DNA of 10,053 nt, taken from IMG/VR virus record IMGVR_UViG_2740892213_000005, one strand, 5' to 3'. A program made the translations under genes and the position numbers. The notes below the pieces were generated by a model. The model ran no database searches. It was not told the DNA's origin and saw only the letters and a program-made list of their open reading frames with translations. This DNA is from a virus. Taxonomy: Duplodnaviria > Heunggongvirae > Uroviricota > Caudoviricetes. Positions within the stretch are counted from its first letter, which is position 1; every line of letters begins with the position of its first letter. Positions 341-6,045 of this stretch are shown here, one piece after another.

Positions 341-1717
341 TCATACGTCAGCCCCTTGTGCATATCGTCTGCCACGCGCAGCAGGTGCATTTGATGCTGT
401 GCAAATCTGTCTGGCTTCATCCTGGTCACATGCAACAAAGTGTCCGTTACAGAACCGCTGGTAAACCGTACCAAGCGAGCCAAAACGGTTTTTCGTCACG
501 ATGATTTCAGCAAATGGCGCGGCGCTACTGTTCTCGTCATATACCGCTTCCCGATAGAGCATGATGATTGAGTCTGCGTCCTGCTCAATGCTTCCTGAAT
601 CACGCAAATCTGCGTTTGTCGGGCGTTTGTTTGGTCGCTTCTCAACATCGCGCGAAAGCTGACTCAGGGAGATAACCGGTGTTTTCAGGTCTTTCGCCAT
701 CGCCTTCAGGCTTCCGGAGATGTGAGCAATTGCGAGGTCGTTGCGGTCTGCTTTCGGCTTCTCAATCAGGCCAAGATAATCCGCCATGATGAGTGAGAGG
801 TTTGGATTTTCCTGTTTGTGCCGTTCTGCGATTGAGCGTATTTCTTCGACCGATAACCGCGAGGCATCGACTACCCATACATCCAAATCTGCAAGCTGAC
901 TCATGCCGTTAGCAACACGTGCCCATCCTTCGTCATCCATCGATGCAGGATTTCGCAGCACGCTAACCGACATCCTCCCGGCGTTGGCAATGCTTCGCTC
1001 TGCAATCTGCAATGCGCTCATTTCCATTGAGAAAATCAACACTCCGCGCCGGACGTCAGAACCAGGAATAACGCGGCTTGCAACGCCTTCGGCAATCTTC
1101 AGAGCCAGTTCGGTTTTCCCCATACCAGGACGAGCAGCGATTATCACCAGGTCTTCCGCGTTCATCCCTCCGGTGATGGCGTCAAGTTCTTCGATTCCGG
1201 TCTTCAGGGTATCTGACTCTTCTCCGTTCCTCAGACGCCTGTCAAGCGTGTCAGTGTAGTCAGTAATGATTTCCCCTAACCGTACCGGTTTAACCTCGTC
1301 ACGGGGCTTTCTGATGGCTGAAAGACGCTTTACAAGTTCATCCATCGCCTGACTCGATGCGTCGATAGTTCCGCTCTGAATTGGTTCACGCATTTCATCC
1401 ATGATTTCCAGCACCAGACGACGGTGATAGTTATCCGCGACCATTCCGGCATATCCCTTCAGGTTTGCGGCACTCGGGCAGTTCTTGCTGGTCATCAGGA
1501 TTGACGTGAAATGCTCCTCTCCGCACGCCTCGGCAACCATCAGCGCGTCGATTAGGTTTCTGTTTCTCGCCTGCTTGCGGATAACCTCGAAGGCTTTCCG
1601 GTAGAGCGGAATTGAAAACGCTTCCGGCTCCAGCGTTGCAAGAACGTCACTGGCGGTTGGAGTTAATCCACCAATCAGCAGGCCACCGATAACGCTCGCT
1701 TCGATATCCTGTTTCAT
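341..1717 (-). CDS. DnaB-family replicative DNA helicase (P22 gene 12-like)
   Basis: 458 aa; N-terminal [13 protein letters not shown] motif, Walker [20 protein letters not shown], and [11 protein letters not shown] identical to the E. coli DnaB motif; ATGA start/stop overlap with the upstream O-like gene. Confidence 0.9.
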
Positions 1718-2661
1718 GCAATCCCCCTGTCTGCAAACTTCCCTTCCCGAACTCCCGTTAACGAATCTTCCCTCAGCAGGTAATCAAAATCAGCCGTCCA
1801 GCCCGTGTCGTTGTCTCCGAAGTAAAACGGCTTGGCCTGATGCACAAACGCCCTGACATACGCTCTGAAACCGTCCACGTTTGGCGTTTTCAGTTGCGGG
1901 ATGATTTTCTTCAGGCGGCGTTTGCGTTTCTCGTTGACCGCAACAGCGTGTGGCAGTCTGTCACCGACTTCGGTGTTGTAGGCGTTCAGGAATGATTCGT
2001 AGTCGATTCGTTCTGCCTTGCGACGTTCAGGTTTAACCTGCCCATCGCCTCCCCCATTGGGGGGTAGGGGGGTATTATTTATATTCTTGTTAATACCTTC
2101 TTGTTCATGATGTGCGGTTGTTTGTGCGGCCTCATGTGCGCTTTCATGTGCGGCATGTGCGCTGAAAGCCGCGCCATTACTGTCTTCGTCATGTGCGGCA
2201 TCATGTGCGGTTGTTTGTGCGGCTTCATGTGCGGGTAAATTGTCCATTTTTTGAGCATATTCATGGTAATTTGTGATGGTGATCACACGACCTTTTTGCT
2301 TCTCTCCATCAATGGAGATCATCCCCTCTTTCACAAAAACCTGAAGCATCCGCTCAACCTGATCACGGCTTGCTGGCTTGCCATGCCTGTCGCATAACTG
2401 AAGACCTAAATCAGCTGCTGTCACAACCAGTTGACCGGGTTGCAGATGCCATTCATGACCTTTGAAATTCGCTTTGTATGGCTTTCTGGCGGCATTCAGG
2501 AGAAGGTTTTCCCACAGGGTGCGAAGATAAACATCTTTCGCCCATGACTGTTTCAGAATGCTCCGGTACAACGGAATGTAACCAGTTTTCTGGTTCTCCA
2601 TCCTGTTGCTCCTGCGCTCGTGTGCGGCGCTGAAATCGTAGATTTTTGCTGTATTGCTCAT
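1714..2661 (-). CDS. O: Replication initiator, lambda O-like (P22 gene 18-like)
   Basis: N-terminus [10 protein letters not shown] resembles lambda O MTNTAKILNF; gene contains the iteron/AT-rich origin; His/Ala-rich repetitive linker is encoded by the iterons. ORF track begins at a GTG at 2664; the ATG at 2661 is preferred by homology. Confidence 0.85.
2051..2100. other. Origin-associated G/C-rich near-palindrome (CCCCCATTGGGGGGTAGGGGGG) plus AT-rich unwinding element (about 2073-2100)
   Basis: AT-rich stretch TATTATTTATATTCTTGTTAATA immediately flanks the iterons, as in lambda ori. Confidence 0.6.
2107..2234. repeat. Origin iterons: about 9 copies of TGTGCG(G/C) at 10-12 bp spacing, including two copies of a roughly 32-bp unit (around 2107-2140 and 2202-2233)
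   Basis: Direct repeats read from the sequence inside the O-like gene; in lambda the O-binding iterons also lie within O. Confidence 0.7.
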
Positions 2662-2663
2662 CA

Positions 2664-2936
2664 CTACCTGCCTTGACGAAAGACCTTAAGAACATCGTTA
2701 AACTGACTTACGGATATGTCTTCTTTGATCAGCCTTTCCAGAAATGCGTTTGGAATGAACGTATATCCCTCCTCTTTTGGTAGAGACGGGAGCAACGCCC
2801 TCGCCTCAGCCTTCAGAAGCTCAGTTCTGGCAACTTTCACAAAAGAGATTTGAGTTCTTTCATCAATGGAACGAAGGAAGCGCAAACGCTTAGCTTCTTT
2901 GTGTGTATCAGGTGGATTAAAGCCTTTGTTTCGCAT
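2664..2936 (-). CDS. Hypothetical protein (90 aa) between cII and O
   Basis: ATG with GAGGTAA Shine-Dalgarno 4 nt upstream; stop overlaps the O start (translational coupling). The track ORF 2664-3104 is the same frame extended upstream. Confidence 0.55.
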   Translation of the reverse strand: MRNKGFNPPDTHKEAKRLRFLRSIDERTQISFVKVARTELLKAEARALLPSLPKEEGYTFIPNAFLERLIKEDISVSQFNDVLKVFRQGR

Positions 2937-2947: not shown

Positions 2948-3015
2948 GTTGGATGTTGTTAAAATTCCATTTGTATTTGATCAGAACGCTCGGTCTTGCA
3001 TACCGGGCGTTTTTT
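2948..3015 (+). ncRNA. oop: Candidate oop-like antisense RNA overlapping the 3' end of cII
   Basis: Plus-strand terminator at 2987-3015 inside the minus-strand cII gene, with a TATAAT about 50 nt upstream; mirrors lambda oop geometry. Start is approximate. Confidence 0.4.
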
Positions 3016-3258
3016 ATTGGTGAGTCCATCAAGCGCATACTTAAAAGCCCTGCTAATTGGACTGATGTCTGATGCCATTCCAAAAGCACACAAGACCGAA
3101 GCAATAAATCTCCAGTCCGTTCTGCTTATCTTCGATTCATGACAGCCAATCATCTTTGCCAGACCGCGCTGGGTAAGCGTTGACAGGTTGATGAGTAAAT
3201 CTGTTTCTGCGCGATCAACGTCGCTCTGTGATAGTTTGCTGTAACTTGTTTGTTCCAT
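2959..3258 (-). CDS. cII: CII-like transcriptional activator
   Basis: 99 aa; C-terminus ...TNKKRPVCKTERSDQIQMEF matches lambda CII ...TNKKRPAATERSEQIQMEF as I recall it. Confidence 0.85.
   Translation of the reverse strand: MEQTSYSKLSQSDVDRAETDLLINLSTLTQRGLAKMIGCHESKISRTDWRFIASVLCAFGMASDISPISRAFKYALDGLTNKKRPVCKTERSDQIQMEF
2987..3015 (+). terminator. Intrinsic terminator (8-bp stem CGCTCGGT/ACCGGGCG, 7-nt loop, TTTTTT)
   Basis: Read directly from the sequence; sits antisense within cII. Confidence 0.6.
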
Positions 3259-3322
3259 TTCTTACTATTTCCATAGGTAAATAATCACTAATACTCATCT
3301 TTCGATGAGTGATTAATTAGTT

Positions 3323-3357
3323 ACCGCGTTGTCGGCGGTGCAGATTGATAAAGAGCG
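3323..3357 (-). promoter_or_regulatory. nutR: nutR: boxA CGCTCTTTA (3349-3357) and boxB ACCGCCGACAACGCGGT (3323-3339), P22 type
   Basis: Minus-strand sequence between cro and cII; boxA matches the consensus; boxB matches the P22 nutR boxB as I recall it. Confidence 0.7.
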
Positions 3358-3367
3358 GATCCGCTTA

Positions 3368-3583
3368 TTAAGCGGCTTTGTGTTCCGGTGGGAACACGTC
3401 ATCAAGACTGACTTTTGCGCCTAACTTGTTTAGGCACGCAACAAGAGCACGGCATGTTTTAAGGTCTGGGAAGCGACGACCAGATTCCCAATGTCCGATA
3501 GCTCCCTGTGTGCATCCAACCGCCTTAGCAAGTGTTGTTTGAGAGATATTCAGTGACTCTCGATATTTTCGTAGGTTGCTCAT
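3368..3583 (-). CDS. cro: Cro-like repressor (HTH, 71 aa)
   Basis: Position divergent from cI; HTH motif QTTLAKAVGCTQGAIGHWESG; GGAGGG Shine-Dalgarno upstream. The track ORF 3368-3754 is the same frame extended upstream. Confidence 0.8.
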   Translation of the reverse strand: MSNLRKYRESLNISQTTLAKAVGCTQGAIGHWESGRRFPDLKTCRALVACLNKLGAKVSLDDVFPPEHKAA

Positions 3584-3609
3584 ATGCCCTCCATAGTAAC
3601 CATGAAACA

Positions 3610-3638
3610 ATAATACGATATGTACTTTTGGAATGCAA
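3610..3638 (-). promoter_or_regulatory. pR: -35 TTGCAT, 17-bp spacer, -10 TATTAT (minus strand)
   Basis: Located about 25 nt upstream of the cro ATG; an operator dyad overlaps the spacer and -10. Confidence 0.5.
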
Positions 3639-3685
3639 ACAAAAAATACATCTTGTGCATGGATGGTTTTAGTACAGAGCGTAAT
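3612..3685. promoter_or_regulatory. OR operator region: dyads AGTAC-N5-GTAYT at 3612-3626 and AGTAC-N5-GTAAT at 3671-3685
   Basis: The same 15-bp dyad recurs at pL (4492-4506) in the same position relative to -35/-10. Confidence 0.45.
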
Positions 3686-3694
3686 AATAAGGAT

Positions 3695-4354
3695 ATGAAA
3701 ATGAAATGGTATGAACTGGCTAGATCCAGAATGAAAGAACTCGGCATAACTCAAGAGAAGTTAGCTGAAGAGCTTGGTATGACGCAGGGTGGAATTGGTC
3801 ACTGGTTGCGCGGATCTCGTCATCCATCTCTTGACGAGATTGGTGTGGTGTTTAAATACCTTGGTATTGATAACGTCTCATTCAACCACGACGGTACATT
3901 TTCACCTGTTGGCGAATACTCATCTGCCCCCGTTAAAAAACAATATGAGTACCCTGTTTTTTCTCATGTTCAGGCCGGGATGTTCTCGCCTGAGCTTAGA
4001 ACCTTTACCAAAGGCGATGCGGAGAGATGGGTCAGCACAACCAAAAAAGCCAGTGATTGTGCGTTTTGGCTTGAAGTTGAAGGTAATTCCATGACCGCAC
4101 CAACAGGATCCAAGCCAAGCTTTCCTGACGGGATGTTAATTCTCGTTGACCCTGAGCAGGCTGTTGAGCCAGGTGATTTCTGCATAGCCAGACTTGGTGG
4201 TGACGAGTTTACCTTCAAGAAACTGATCAGGGATAGCGGTCAGGTGTTCCTACAACCACTAAACCCGCAATATCCAATGATCCCATGCAATGATAGCTGT
4301 TCCGTAGTAGGGAAAGTTATCGCCAGCCAGTGGCCTGAAGAGACATTTAGTTAA
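3695..4354 (+). CDS. cI: CI-type prophage repressor (S24 peptidase family)
   Basis: C-terminal roughly 130 aa almost identical to the lambda cI C-terminal domain ([38 protein letters not shown]); N-terminal HTH domain differs. Start at 3695 or 3701; the track ORF begins at 3620. Confidence 0.85.
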
Positions 4355-4385
4355 CAGCCTCACCACTCTAAAACACACAACAATA

Positions 4386-4414
4386 ACCCGACCTTAGCGT
4401 CGGGTTTTCTTTTT
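4386..4414 (+). terminator. Intrinsic terminator after cI (CCCGAC-loop-GTCGGG, TTTTCTTTTT)
   Basis: Read from the sequence about 30 nt after the cI stop. Confidence 0.6.
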
Positions 4415-4479
4415 CCAAAATATAAATCAATAAAATACAAAGTGTTATAAAAAACTAACCGCATTTAGAACATTTTGTA

Positions 4480-4508
4480 TTGACTCAATAAAGTACACAT
4501 CGTACTAT
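4480..4508 (+). promoter_or_regulatory. pL: -35 TTGACT, 17-bp spacer, -10 TACTAT, with OL dyad AGTACACATCGTACT (4492-4506)
   Basis: Near-consensus sigma70 promoter about 200 nt upstream of N; operator overlaps spacer and -10. Confidence 0.6.
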
Positions 4509-4553
4509 TTAGCCATCAGCAGGAAGCTGGAAGCCAAACGGAACAGATTGGCA

Positions 4554-4588
4554 GGCTCTTTAACTTCGATGGGGCGCTGACAAAGCGC
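4554..4588 (+). promoter_or_regulatory. nutL: nutL: boxA GGCTCTTTAA (4554-4563) and boxB GCGCTGACAAAGCGC (4574-4588), P22 type
   Basis: Lies between pL and N; boxB is a 5-bp stem with GACAA loop, matching the P22 nutL boxB as I recall it. Confidence 0.75.
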
Positions 4589-4707
4589 AAACAGATACCA
4601 AACGAGATGGGTTTGGCGGTGATGTGAATTGCAGCTGCAACGACAGCAACCAGAAGATCAGCACCTGGCGCATCACCACCAAAGCCATTTCACATGAGGA
4701 AAACATC

Positions 4708-5016
4708 ATGACGGTAATCGTGTACGGAAAATCAACATTTGCAGGAAATGCCAAAACTCGCCGTCATGAGCGGCGCAGAAAGCTGGCTATCGAGCGTGAT
4801 TCCATCTGCAACATCATCGATTCGATCTTCGGCACAGACAGTGAGGAAGCTGTTCAGGAAGAACCGAGAAAGCGTTTAAGTCTTTCTGAAAAAGCAATAT
4901 CACTCGGCATCATCAGTAAATCAAATACAGATGCGAATGGCGGAAGCGTTTGTTTGCCTGAAGTTGCACTGTATGCTGCTGGTTACAGGTCAATGAAATC
5001 AATTACGGCGAGATAG
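4708..5016 (+). CDS. N: N-type transcription antiterminator (P22 gene 24-like)
   Basis: Contains the arginine-rich motif GNAKTRRHERRRKLAIER, the P22 N boxB-binding peptide; GAGGA Shine-Dalgarno upstream. The track ORF starts at 4624; the homology start is MTVIVYG. Confidence 0.85.
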   Translation: MTVIVYGKSTFAGNAKTRRHERRRKLAIERDSICNIIDSIFGTDSEEAVQEEPRKRLSLSEKAISLGIISKSNTDANGGSVCLPEVALYAAGYRSMKSITAR

Positions 5017-5018
5017 AA

Positions 5019-5285
5019 ATGACTAGCAAACAAGTATCATATAAATGCTATTGCCCTTTATGTGGAAGAAAATTCAGCGCCAAGGCAGCATGGAAGCATA
5101 TCAATGATTATCATCCAAAAGCATCAGAACGTGAGTTGATGATGATAAGAGATGTAAAACGAGAAAAAATTTCTTTCGCAACAAAGCCACTAAACGCCAA
5201 CAAAAACGCAATATTGTATCAAATGCATCGTTCAAGTGGTCCAGATTATTCTGGAGGGCTTCCATCTCTTGGAAAGAAAAAATAA
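5019..5285 (+). CDS. Small C2H2-type zinc-finger-like protein (88 aa), hypothetical
   Basis: Pattern C-x2-C-x12-H-x4-H (CPLCGRKFSAKAAWKHINDYH); starts 2 nt after the N stop. Confidence 0.6.
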   Translation: MTSKQVSYKCYCPLCGRKFSAKAAWKHINDYHPKASERELMMIRDVKREKISFATKPLNANKNAILYQMHRSSGPDYSGGLPSLGKKK

Positions 5286-5421: not shown

Positions 5422-6045
5422 ATGTCATCAATCCGCTTAACTACGAGAATGAAAGAGGAAATCGCTCGTAACGCTTTAATTAAGTCTGGGGTTTTCACTG
5501 AACTTGAAGAAGTAACAAAGTTAAAGAACCAGCTTGCACTTGACGCCAGAGTTATTGCGTTTGGCGGGAAAAAGAAAACCGAAGAAGTGGACCAGCTGGC
5601 ATCAAAGTTAATGGCTGCAAGTGAGGAACTTCAAAAGCTTGGATGTTCATTTTACTCATGCGATGTCAGTTCAAGTTCGATTTATCTGACTGTATCTGGA
5701 AGAAGGGTTGGCTGGCATTCATACGGAAAAGACGGCAACGGTGAAGATATATTGCTCCCTACCCCCGACAAAGATAAATGCATGTTTGACGCAGAACACA
5801 AAATAACAAAAAGGTTTGATGAAATCTGCGCATTGCAACAAAAACTTGAAGCCAGGAAAAAGGATATCGAATCAAATGTATGGGCTGCTTTGAACTCAGT
5901 CACAACAGTTAAGCGACTTATTGAGGTCTGGCCTGAAAGCAAAGAGTTGCTACCAAAAGAAGCAGATAAAGCAAGTGCAGCACTTCCTGCTTTACGGGTA
6001 GAAGATTTGAATAAGATGATTGGACTTCCTTCCGAGGCCGCATAG
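5422..6045 (+). CDS. Hypothetical protein (207 aa), accessory gene in the pL operon
   Basis: ATG with GAGAGGAA Shine-Dalgarno; the track ORF 5362-6045 is the same frame extended upstream. No family recognised. Confidence 0.65.
   Translation: MSSIRLTTRMKEEIARNALIKSGVFTELEEVTKLKNQLALDARVIAFGGKKKTEEVDQLASKLMAASEELQKLGCSFYSCDVSSSSIYLTVSGRRVGWHSYGKDGNGEDILLPTPDKDKCMFDAEHKITKRFDEICALQQKLEARKKDIESNVWAALNSVTTVKRLIEVWPESKELLPKEADKASAALPALRVEDLNKMIGLPSEAA

Follow-up and report, generated by a model that had tools for sequence, protein, structure and literature searches.

Genes and operators of the immunity region

We analyzed a 10,053-nt stretch of DNA (hereafter the window) from the Caudoviricetes record IMGVR_UViG_2740892213_000005 of IMG/VR, which represents the early region of a lambdoid prophage and whose plus strand corresponds to the leftward strand of lambda. 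Positions 3323-4588 had been described in an earlier note, made from the letters alone, as a mosaic immunity region. Taken as one claim, the identification of this interval as the immunity region of a lambdoid E. coli prophage, with a lambda-type lysis/lysogeny switch built from three known modules, is highly probable. Sequence identities, site positions, conservation and co-variation were obtained directly, and binding, promoter starts, activation and a leaderless mRNA are predicted from them. The divergent cro and cI genes enclose a 111-bp gap with three operators and two promoter candidates, and a second operator cluster, OL1-OL3 (4434-4506), lies over a pL promoter (TTGACT-17-TACTAT) 5' of N. 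The central genes and the six operators are listed below (aa, amino acids; HTH, helix-turn-helix; dG, folding free energy).

cro: 3368-3583, minus strand, 71-aa protein with an HTH_3 fold (Pfam HTH_3, E=4e-12)
cI: 3695-4354, plus strand, 219-aa repressor with an HTH_3 N-terminal domain and a lambda-type Peptidase_S24 C-terminal domain (Pfam)
Intrinsic terminator 3' of cI: 4385-4416, plus strand, 8-bp stem followed by TTTTCTTTTT, dG -12.4 kcal/mol, z -4.1
N: 4708-5016, plus strand, 102-aa antiterminator of the P22 gene 24 type (Pfam N_peptide PF25694, E=6.5e-37)
OR1: 3612-3626, AATACGATATGTACT (minus-strand reading AGTACATATCGTATT), over the -10 element and spacer of pR, 12/12 pattern match
OR2: 3645-3659, AATACATCTTGTGCA, adjoining the -35 element of pRM, centre at -43 from ATG 3695, 10/12
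OR3: 3671-3685, AGTACAGAGCGTAAT, overlapping the -10 element of pRM, 11/12
OL3: 4434-4448, AATACAAAGTGTTAT, the weakest site, 10/12
OL2: 4467-4481, AGAACATTTTGTATT, overlapping the -35 element of pL
OL1: 4492-4506, AGTACACATCGTACT, a perfect dyad in the spacer and -10 element of pL

All sequences quoted in the earlier note sit at the coordinates it gave. Its dyad, AGTAC-N5-GTAYT, is exact at 4492-4506 and 3612-3626, and has one mismatch at 3671-3685, where the right arm reads GTAAT. These three dyads are real, but the full set comprises three operators in OR and three in OL; OR2, OL2 and OL3 had been missed, and the half-site is better described by a 6-bp arm with a 3-bp centre than by AGTAC-N5. 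The refined pattern, ARTACR-N3-YGTAYT (ARTACRNNNYGTAYT), was scored out of 12. With at most one mismatch, the original pattern occurs at four places in the 10 kb, all in the cro-cI gap or in the gap preceding pL (0.45 strand-hits expected; the observed count was reached in 1 of 200 shuffles). At a score of at least 10/12, the refined pattern has three sites in each gap, compared to a mean of about 0.1 in 5,000 dinucleotide-preserving shuffles of the same gap (P<=4e-4), and no site of at least 11/12 was found in the remaining 9.86 kb outside the two gaps. The same sites were grouped by a repeat finder that was blind to the pattern, which also showed that OR1 with the -10 element of pR and OL1 with the -10 element of pL are 90% complementary over 20 nt. 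In addition, six 'putative operators' are annotated in GenBank AP005153, half of them in OR and half in OL, and they coincide exactly with the six sites.

Conservation was examined in Shiga toxin (Stx) phages, in phage Dewey and in IMG/VR loci with a cI N-terminal domain 99-100% identical to that of the window (80 loci classified, 77 usable). Positions 1-5 of the half-sites are nearly invariant, and the variation is almost wholly confined to the central 3-5 bp; the half-sites of OR1 do not vary in the 77 loci, and OR2 is kept in Stx phages, Dewey and Salmonella phage L. A further candidate in OL (4451-4465, 9/12) lacks conservation across the window, Dewey and the Stx1 phage and was discarded. 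We regard the six operators as the predicted sites for cI dimers and Cro. It is extremely unlikely that the dyads are chance palindromes and that the true repressor sites lie elsewhere: the intergenic regions are AT-rich, five further 10/12 matches occur in the window and operator binding is a prediction from sequence, but this explanation is opposed by the gap shuffles, the confinement of every match of at least 11/12 to OR or OL, the conserved half-sites around variable centres in the 77 loci, the complementarity of OR1 and OL1 with their adjoining -10 elements, and the presence of the same motif at the same promoter-relative positions in phages L and epsilon34.

The repressor itself is a mosaic, in which a non-lambda HTH domain is joined to the lambda S24 domain. 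From YEYPVF (3944) to its end, cI is identical to lambda cI at 133/136 aa and 384/411 nt, differing only by S139C, E217D and G236S, as the earlier note had perceived in calling this domain nearly lambda. Upstream of 3944 no similarity to lambda cI was found apart from an N-terminal match confined to 26 HTH residues (12/26 identities). A94-G95, S132 and K175 align with A111-G112, S149 and K192 of lambda, and all cooperativity residues checked are conserved. The best PDB match of the whole protein is lambda repressor (3BDN, E=2e-96), and a PDB search with the N-terminal domain returned only generic HTH proteins (E>=1e-4). Cro, an HTH_3 protein, is likewise not of the lambda kind, and no lambda half-site within one mismatch is present in OR or OL, so the note was also right to set the N-terminal domain, Cro and the operators apart from lambda. 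Cro is 35% identical to the N-terminal domain of cI, and their recognition helices are nearly equal (TQGAIGHW in Cro, TQGGIGHW in cI), as expected if both read the same operators.

Promoters and the start of cI

Three promoters can be placed relative to the operators.

pR: 3638-3610, minus strand, -35 TTGCAT (3638-3633), 17-nt spacer, -10 TATTAT (3615-3610), start near 3603
pRM candidate: 3660-3688, plus strand, putative -35 TGGATG (3660-3665), 17-nt spacer, -10 AATAAT (3683-3688), predicted start A3695
pL: 4480-4508, plus strand, TTGACT-17-TACTAT by consensus scan, start near A4515

For pR, a consensus scan selects the neighbouring register TTTGCA-18-TATTAT, and the corresponding position in AP005153 is labelled 'putative major rightward promoter'; that record also has a putative pRM. 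The pL transcript start, ATCAGCAGGA, is common to lambda and P22.

To define pRM, the sequence upstream of the repressor ATG was aligned in eight phages in the lambda register. The arrangement of -35, -10 and ATG is TAGATA-17-TAGATT-6-ATG in lambda, TGGATG-17-AATAAT-6-ATG in the window group, TTGTCA-17-AATAAT-6-ATG in phage L and CTGTTC-17-TATAAT-6-ATG in epsilon34. The mRNA from lambda pRM begins at the AUG of cI. The preservation of the -10 element, the 6-nt interval and the ATG in three lineages supports a leaderless transcript here as well, and we consider it reasonably likely that the pRM transcript starts at the A of ATG 3695. OR3 ends 9 nt upstream of this ATG, in the register of lambda pRM, just where the earlier note had located its third dyad; the leaderless transcript that it proposed on this basis has thus gained comparative backing while still being a prediction.

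On this arrangement, cI dimers would bind the six 15-bp operators via the HTH domain with recognition helix TQGGIGHW. Repressor bound at OR1 and OL1 (-10 element and spacer) and at OL2 (-35 element of pL) would shut off pR and pL. At OR2, which adjoins the weak -35 element of pRM, it would probably activate pRM, because the acidic residues E21 and E25 of cI align with E34 and D38 of lambda cI, which we take to be positive-control residues. Occupation of OR3, over the -10 element of pRM, should result in negative autoregulation, and the start at the A of ATG 3695 would yield a leaderless cI mRNA. The lambda part of cI (3944-4354) is expected to confer RecA-stimulated self-cleavage and oligomerisation as in lambda, since the Ala-Gly site, the Ser/Lys pair and the checked cooperativity residues are kept. 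A pRE-like promoter was also observed on the plus strand within the 5' end of cII (3236-3268), consisting of TTGC-N6-TTGT (3236-3249), 13 nt and TACTAT (3263-3268); it points through cro toward cI, in the layout of lambda pRE.

Several points weigh against this account of the switch. A Shine-Dalgarno (SD)-like AAGGA at 3689-3693, 7 nt before a second in-frame ATG at 3701, leaves room for a short-leadered or SD-dependent start, and both RefSeq (WP_014532159.1, 231 aa) and AP005153 annotate cI from ATG 3659, which is located inside OR2. OR2 and OL3, with only 10 of 12 matching positions, are predicted sites of weak fit. The distance between OR1 and OR2 is 32-35 bp versus 24 bp in lambda, so lambda-style cooperativity is not assumable despite the lambda C-terminal domain. 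Furthermore, a full-text literature search with the operator sequences returned no papers, and no footprint, start-site map or immunity test was found for operators of this type; a 2021 review cites mapped operators among Stx phages for 933W and H-19B only.

With regard to the start codon, translation of cI from ATG 3701 by means of this SD, on a transcript begun 5' of 3689 by a conventional pRM, is the alternative that survives best, though we consider it unlikely. The SD-like sequence and its distance to ATG 3701 are kept in the window group and in epsilon34, and the record of phage Nil2 uses this start. However, any -10 element in the AT-rich block 3682-3690 would place the transcript start at 3694-3698, downstream of the SD, and phage L, which lacks both an SD and a second ATG, nonetheless retains the -10 element, the 6 nt and the ATG; the only ATG of phage L is aligned with 3695. 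Alternatively, the SD could act on long pRE transcripts, and both starts may be used.

A start at ATG 3659 (231 aa), with a leadered mRNA and OR3 inside the coding sequence, is very unlikely. The window has an open frame from 3659 onward, phage L likewise has an open upstream extension, and this start was chosen by PGAP and by the AP005153 annotators. In 4 of the 77 IMG/VR loci, however, an in-frame TAG lies between ATG 3659 and 3695 while the 219-codon cI is intact, and on these loci ATG 3659 was ruled out as the cI start. Moreover, the extension in epsilon34, as read from its sequence, is closed by TGA and has no ATG, close relatives differ within it by non-synonymous changes (F to S or C, S to N, D to G), it would have to hold OR3 and the -10 element, and the Nil2 record begins cI at 3701. 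Thus, judging from these comparisons, cI probably starts at 3695, and the annotated ATG 3659 would make the protein 12 codons too long.

The N antiterminator and its matched nut sites

The immunity region is flanked by two nut sites, in each of which boxA lies 10 nt upstream of boxB.

nutR boxB: 3323-3339, minus strand, ACCGCCGACAACGCGGT, identical to P22 nutR, 5-bp stem and CGACAAC loop
nutR boxA: 3349-3357, minus strand, CGCTCTTTA, read and aligned with P22, the Stx1 phage and lambda
nutL boxA: 4555-4563, plus strand, GCTCTTTAA, aligned with P22 nutL
nutL boxB: 4574-4588, plus strand, GCGCTGACAAAGCGC, identical to P22 nutL, 5-bp stem and GACAA loop

N is identical to P22 gp24 at 70 of 100 residues, with only three differences in residues 1-42, a diverged central part, and an RNA-binding arm (residues 14-31, NAKTRRHERRRKLAIERD) that is the same in both proteins. 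Together with the identity of both boxB sequences to those of P22, this bears out the claims of the earlier note that N resembles P22 gene 24 and that protein and RNA sites are matched. The boxA sequences are nearly identical to those of P22 and the N-leader hairpin is similar; the difference is that these elements are attached here to another cassette and not to P22 c2/cro. The boxB of nutL is the 15-mer of the P22 N-peptide NMR (nuclear magnetic resonance) complex PDB 1A4T as quoted in PMC11480772, and N matches 18 of the 19 residues of the peptide quoted there. A PDB sequence search with N yielded nothing relevant, in a library without chains of fewer than 20 residues that probably excludes the 1A4T peptide. 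The arginine-rich arm of N would bind the hairpin that boxB forms in the transcripts from pL and pR and make RNA polymerase resistant to terminators.

The same cassette was found with three antitermination sets, in which both boxB sequences switch with the type of N.

Window: P22-type N, nutL boxB GCGCTGACAAAGCGC, nutR boxB CCGCCGACAACGCGG
Stx1 phage and 2B8: HK97-type N, nutL boxB GGCTGAAAAGCC (Stx1 phage), nutR boxB CGCTGAAAAGCG
Dewey: lambda-type N, nutL boxB GCCCTGAAGAAGGGC, nutR boxB GCCCTGAAAAAGGGC

Among the IMG/VR loci, the types of N, nutL and nutR agree in 39 lambda-type, 14 P22-type and two HK97-type loci, and no discordant combination was found either in the 55 loci with all three parts classified or in the 64 with both nut sites classified. 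That the window is a decayed prophage remnant, in which the match of N and nut sites would be historical and not functional, is very improbable. It is most likely chromosomal prophage DNA, with 99.8% identical copies in E. coli chromosomes; nevertheless, all open reading frames (ORFs) are intact, the cassette is present in the isolated plaque-forming phages Dewey, phi458 and vB_EcoP-683R2, the same N occurs in phage phiKp_30, and the complete lack of discordant combinations implies ongoing selection.

Two further RNA structures were observed next to the nut sites. Between nutL and the ribosome-binding site of N (4604-4691, plus strand) lies a long, very stable hairpin with 21-nt arms that are 86% complementary; the fold of 4589-4712 has a dG of -45.9 kcal/mol (z -6.3). 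The hairpin, which is retained in part in P22, probably corresponds to the structure in the N leader of lambda that RNase III processes. Between nutR and cII (3262-3322, minus strand), a hairpin with a dG of -15.7 kcal/mol (z -3.9) is followed by UAUUUA. We regard it as a candidate for a tR1-like terminator, and a tR1 is annotated at the corresponding position of the epsilon34 record.

Relation to known immunity types and implications

The earlier note had left the repressor and operators to be aligned with known immunity types. Such alignment leaves them non-lambda and, by sequence, assigns them to the already known VT2-Sakai/Nil2/Stx2-II type; the immunity is thus not new. The cro-OR-cI DNA is 93% identical to that of Nil2, the Stx1-converting phage, Stx2 II, 2851 and the PA-series O157:H7 phages, and 98% identical to that of the non-Stx phages Dewey, Louie, phi458 and vB_EcoP-683R2. 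At 100% identity, the same Cro occurs in all of these phages as well as in VT2-Sakai and 1717. The N-terminal domain of cI is 96-100% identical across this set (96% in VT2-Sakai, Nil2, 1717, 2851 and the Stx1/Stx2-II phages); over residues 1-83, the identity is 96.4% with 1717, the PA series and 2B8, and 100% with phi458. When OR and OL are aligned with their counterparts in the Stx1 phage, Nil2, 2B8, Dewey and VT2-Sakai, the differences fall mainly in operator centres and spacers. The six operators occupy the same positions in VT2-Sakai (Sp5), Nil2, AP005153, AP005154, 1717, 2851 and the PA series as well as in phi458, Dewey and Louie (spacings of 32-33/26 bp in OR and 25/33 bp in OL), and all of these phages have the same lambda-like cI C-terminal domain, pR, pRM and pL. 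The Stx phages differ from the window by HK97-type N and nut sites and by additional ORFs, about 1.4 kb in all, between cI and OL, where the window has only the terminator. Dewey, in contrast, carries the cassette with the N and nut sites of lambda, whereas those of the window are of the P22 type. In the VT2-Sakai record NC_000902, cI is annotated in two pieces and is interrupted in frame by a stop codon in the region of the recognition helix (MT*GGIGHW); the sequenced VT2-Sakai may be a repressor mutant.

Modular exchange is classical among lambdoid phages, the imm434 and imm21 hybrids being examples. In the window, homology to the Stx-phage immunity module begins at about 3350, and Stx2a phages of the LC6160xx series have the cII-nutR segment (98.3%) and N (97.4%) of the window around a different, longer immunity region. 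The right exchange joint falls at 3350-3368, at the cro stop or boxA, and the left one either within the conserved 5' end of the pL transcript (CATCAGCAGGA, about 4520) or inside nutL, between its boxA and its boxB. On this reading, the cassette cro-OR-cI-terminator-OL/pL (approximately 3350-4527) has been swapped by recombination at conserved joints, with N, nutL and nutR staying matched. In Klebsiella phage phiKp_30 (LC768498, 701-1690), the N region is 99.4% identical to that of the window, and only a cro-like HTH gene was observed about 460 bp upstream of it, with no cI in between; this phage may be a cI-less derivative, or its linear record may be cut there.

Compared to the lambda switch, the region shares the cI linker and C-terminal domain (98%), three plus three operators, O1 over the -10 element, the pRM register, OR2 at about -42/-43 and the acidic positive-control positions. 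It differs in its operators, which are of the 15-bp ARTACR type instead of the 17-bp TATCACCGC type, in the distance between OR1 and OR2 (33 bp versus 24 bp), in an all-helical HTH_3 Cro in place of the lambda Cro fold, and in lacking rexAB. Closer relatives of the DNA-binding module are found in Salmonella phages L/ST64T and epsilon34, whose N-terminal domain is about 54% identical; Cro of phage L is 69% identical. Their operators (AATACATTTCGTACT, AATACAATATGTGTG and AATACATCTCGTAAT in phage L; ATACACATCGTAT and ATACAAATTGTAT in epsilon34) follow the pattern AATACA-N3-YGTAYT, with an OR spacing of 34/26 in phage L and a differently placed middle operator in epsilon34 (24/35), for which its authors proposed WTACRAWWTGTAT as the operator (PMC2629481). 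The recognition helices of phage L c2 and Cro (TQGAIGHW/Y) match that of Cro in the window, and cross-recognition between the Salmonella phage L/ST64T and E. coli immunity types is conceivable. Since the phage L repressor belongs to the same DNA-binding family and has a P22-c2-like C-terminal domain, unlike the lambda-like one here, the DNA-binding domain plus operators on one side and the cleavage/oligomerisation domain on the other are, on this comparison, separate exchangeable units.

Two other immunities were considered and rejected. The experimentally mapped operators of 933W are also 15 bp long, have an odd central base and carry G-T/A-A-C at positions 2-5 (e.g. OR1, CGTACTGAAAGTACG), but its repressor N-terminal domain is only about 23% identical and has another recognition helix, and its Cro is HK022-like; the likeness (2776-2846 of the 933W sequence; GTAC or GAAC at 2-5) could reflect convergence or a very distant relationship. 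The lambda-like repressor of BAA2326 (O104:H4) has footprinted operators (ATAACTGTGCGTAATG, ATATCTGCGGTGTTGAC, CCTTTGGTTATATGTAAT; PMC5977221) without the motif of the window, and its immunity is not the same.

Outside the immunity region, the window contains the following right-operon genes:

DnaB-like helicase: 341-1717, minus strand
O-like initiator: 1714-2664, minus strand
cII: 2959-3258, minus strand (Pfam Phage_CII)

Downstream of N, more left-operon genes are present. An 88-aa ORF directly after N (5019-5285, plus strand) has a C2H2-like zinc-finger motif (CPLCGRKF...HINDYH) with weak, sub-threshold Pfam matches, and another ORF of the pL operon (5422-6045, plus strand) matches Pfam Nmad5 (nucleotide modification associated domain 5) over its full length (E=1e-69). 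An Rfam scan of the whole window gave no match. Positions 3300-5100 have copies in E. coli chromosomes at 99.4-99.8% identity, and the same module combination was found at a coverage of at least 80% in about 50 of 5,426 complete genomes; none of the phage records in the collection searched covers more than 54% of the whole window.

The object is a further recombinant of well-known modules, with no unusual mechanism indicated. As it stands, its significance is very small, as one more lambdoid recombinant made from modules already in the databases. It does illustrate in numbers that N, nutL and nutR travel together as a matching set of three, even with a replaceable immunity cassette lying between them. 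Its by-products are a clean six-site definition, ARTACR-N3-YGTAYT, for the immunity type of VT2-Sakai and many O157:H7 Stx phages, and evidence that the cI start in RefSeq and AP005153 is probably misplaced.

The only aspect that we regard as potentially informative is a possible cooperativity between OR1 and OR2 over 33 bp, which the lambda C-terminal domain of cI might mediate. The VT2-Sakai-type switch, to which the window belongs, unites this domain of lambda with an operator geometry that is not that of lambda. In the 77 IMG/VR loci, OR2 and OR3 are always 26 bp apart and OL1 and OL2 always 25 bp, whereas OR1-OR2 varies between 33 and 35 bp (32 in Stx phages) and OL2-OL3 between 32 and 34 bp. 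Each of the two invariant pairs straddles the -35 and -10 elements of a promoter, and promoter geometry alone suffices to explain their spacing. As only these pairs have a lambda-like invariant spacing, cooperativity between OR1 and OR2 is possibly missing. We put forward, tentatively and with low confidence, that cooperativity may link OR2 with OR3 or be lacking between OR1 and OR2, which, if true, would mean a lower repressor set-point and easier induction in the clinically important Stx2 phages. With the same low confidence, two cI starts may exist, a leaderless AUG 3695 used from pRM and an SD-served AUG 3701 used from pRE.

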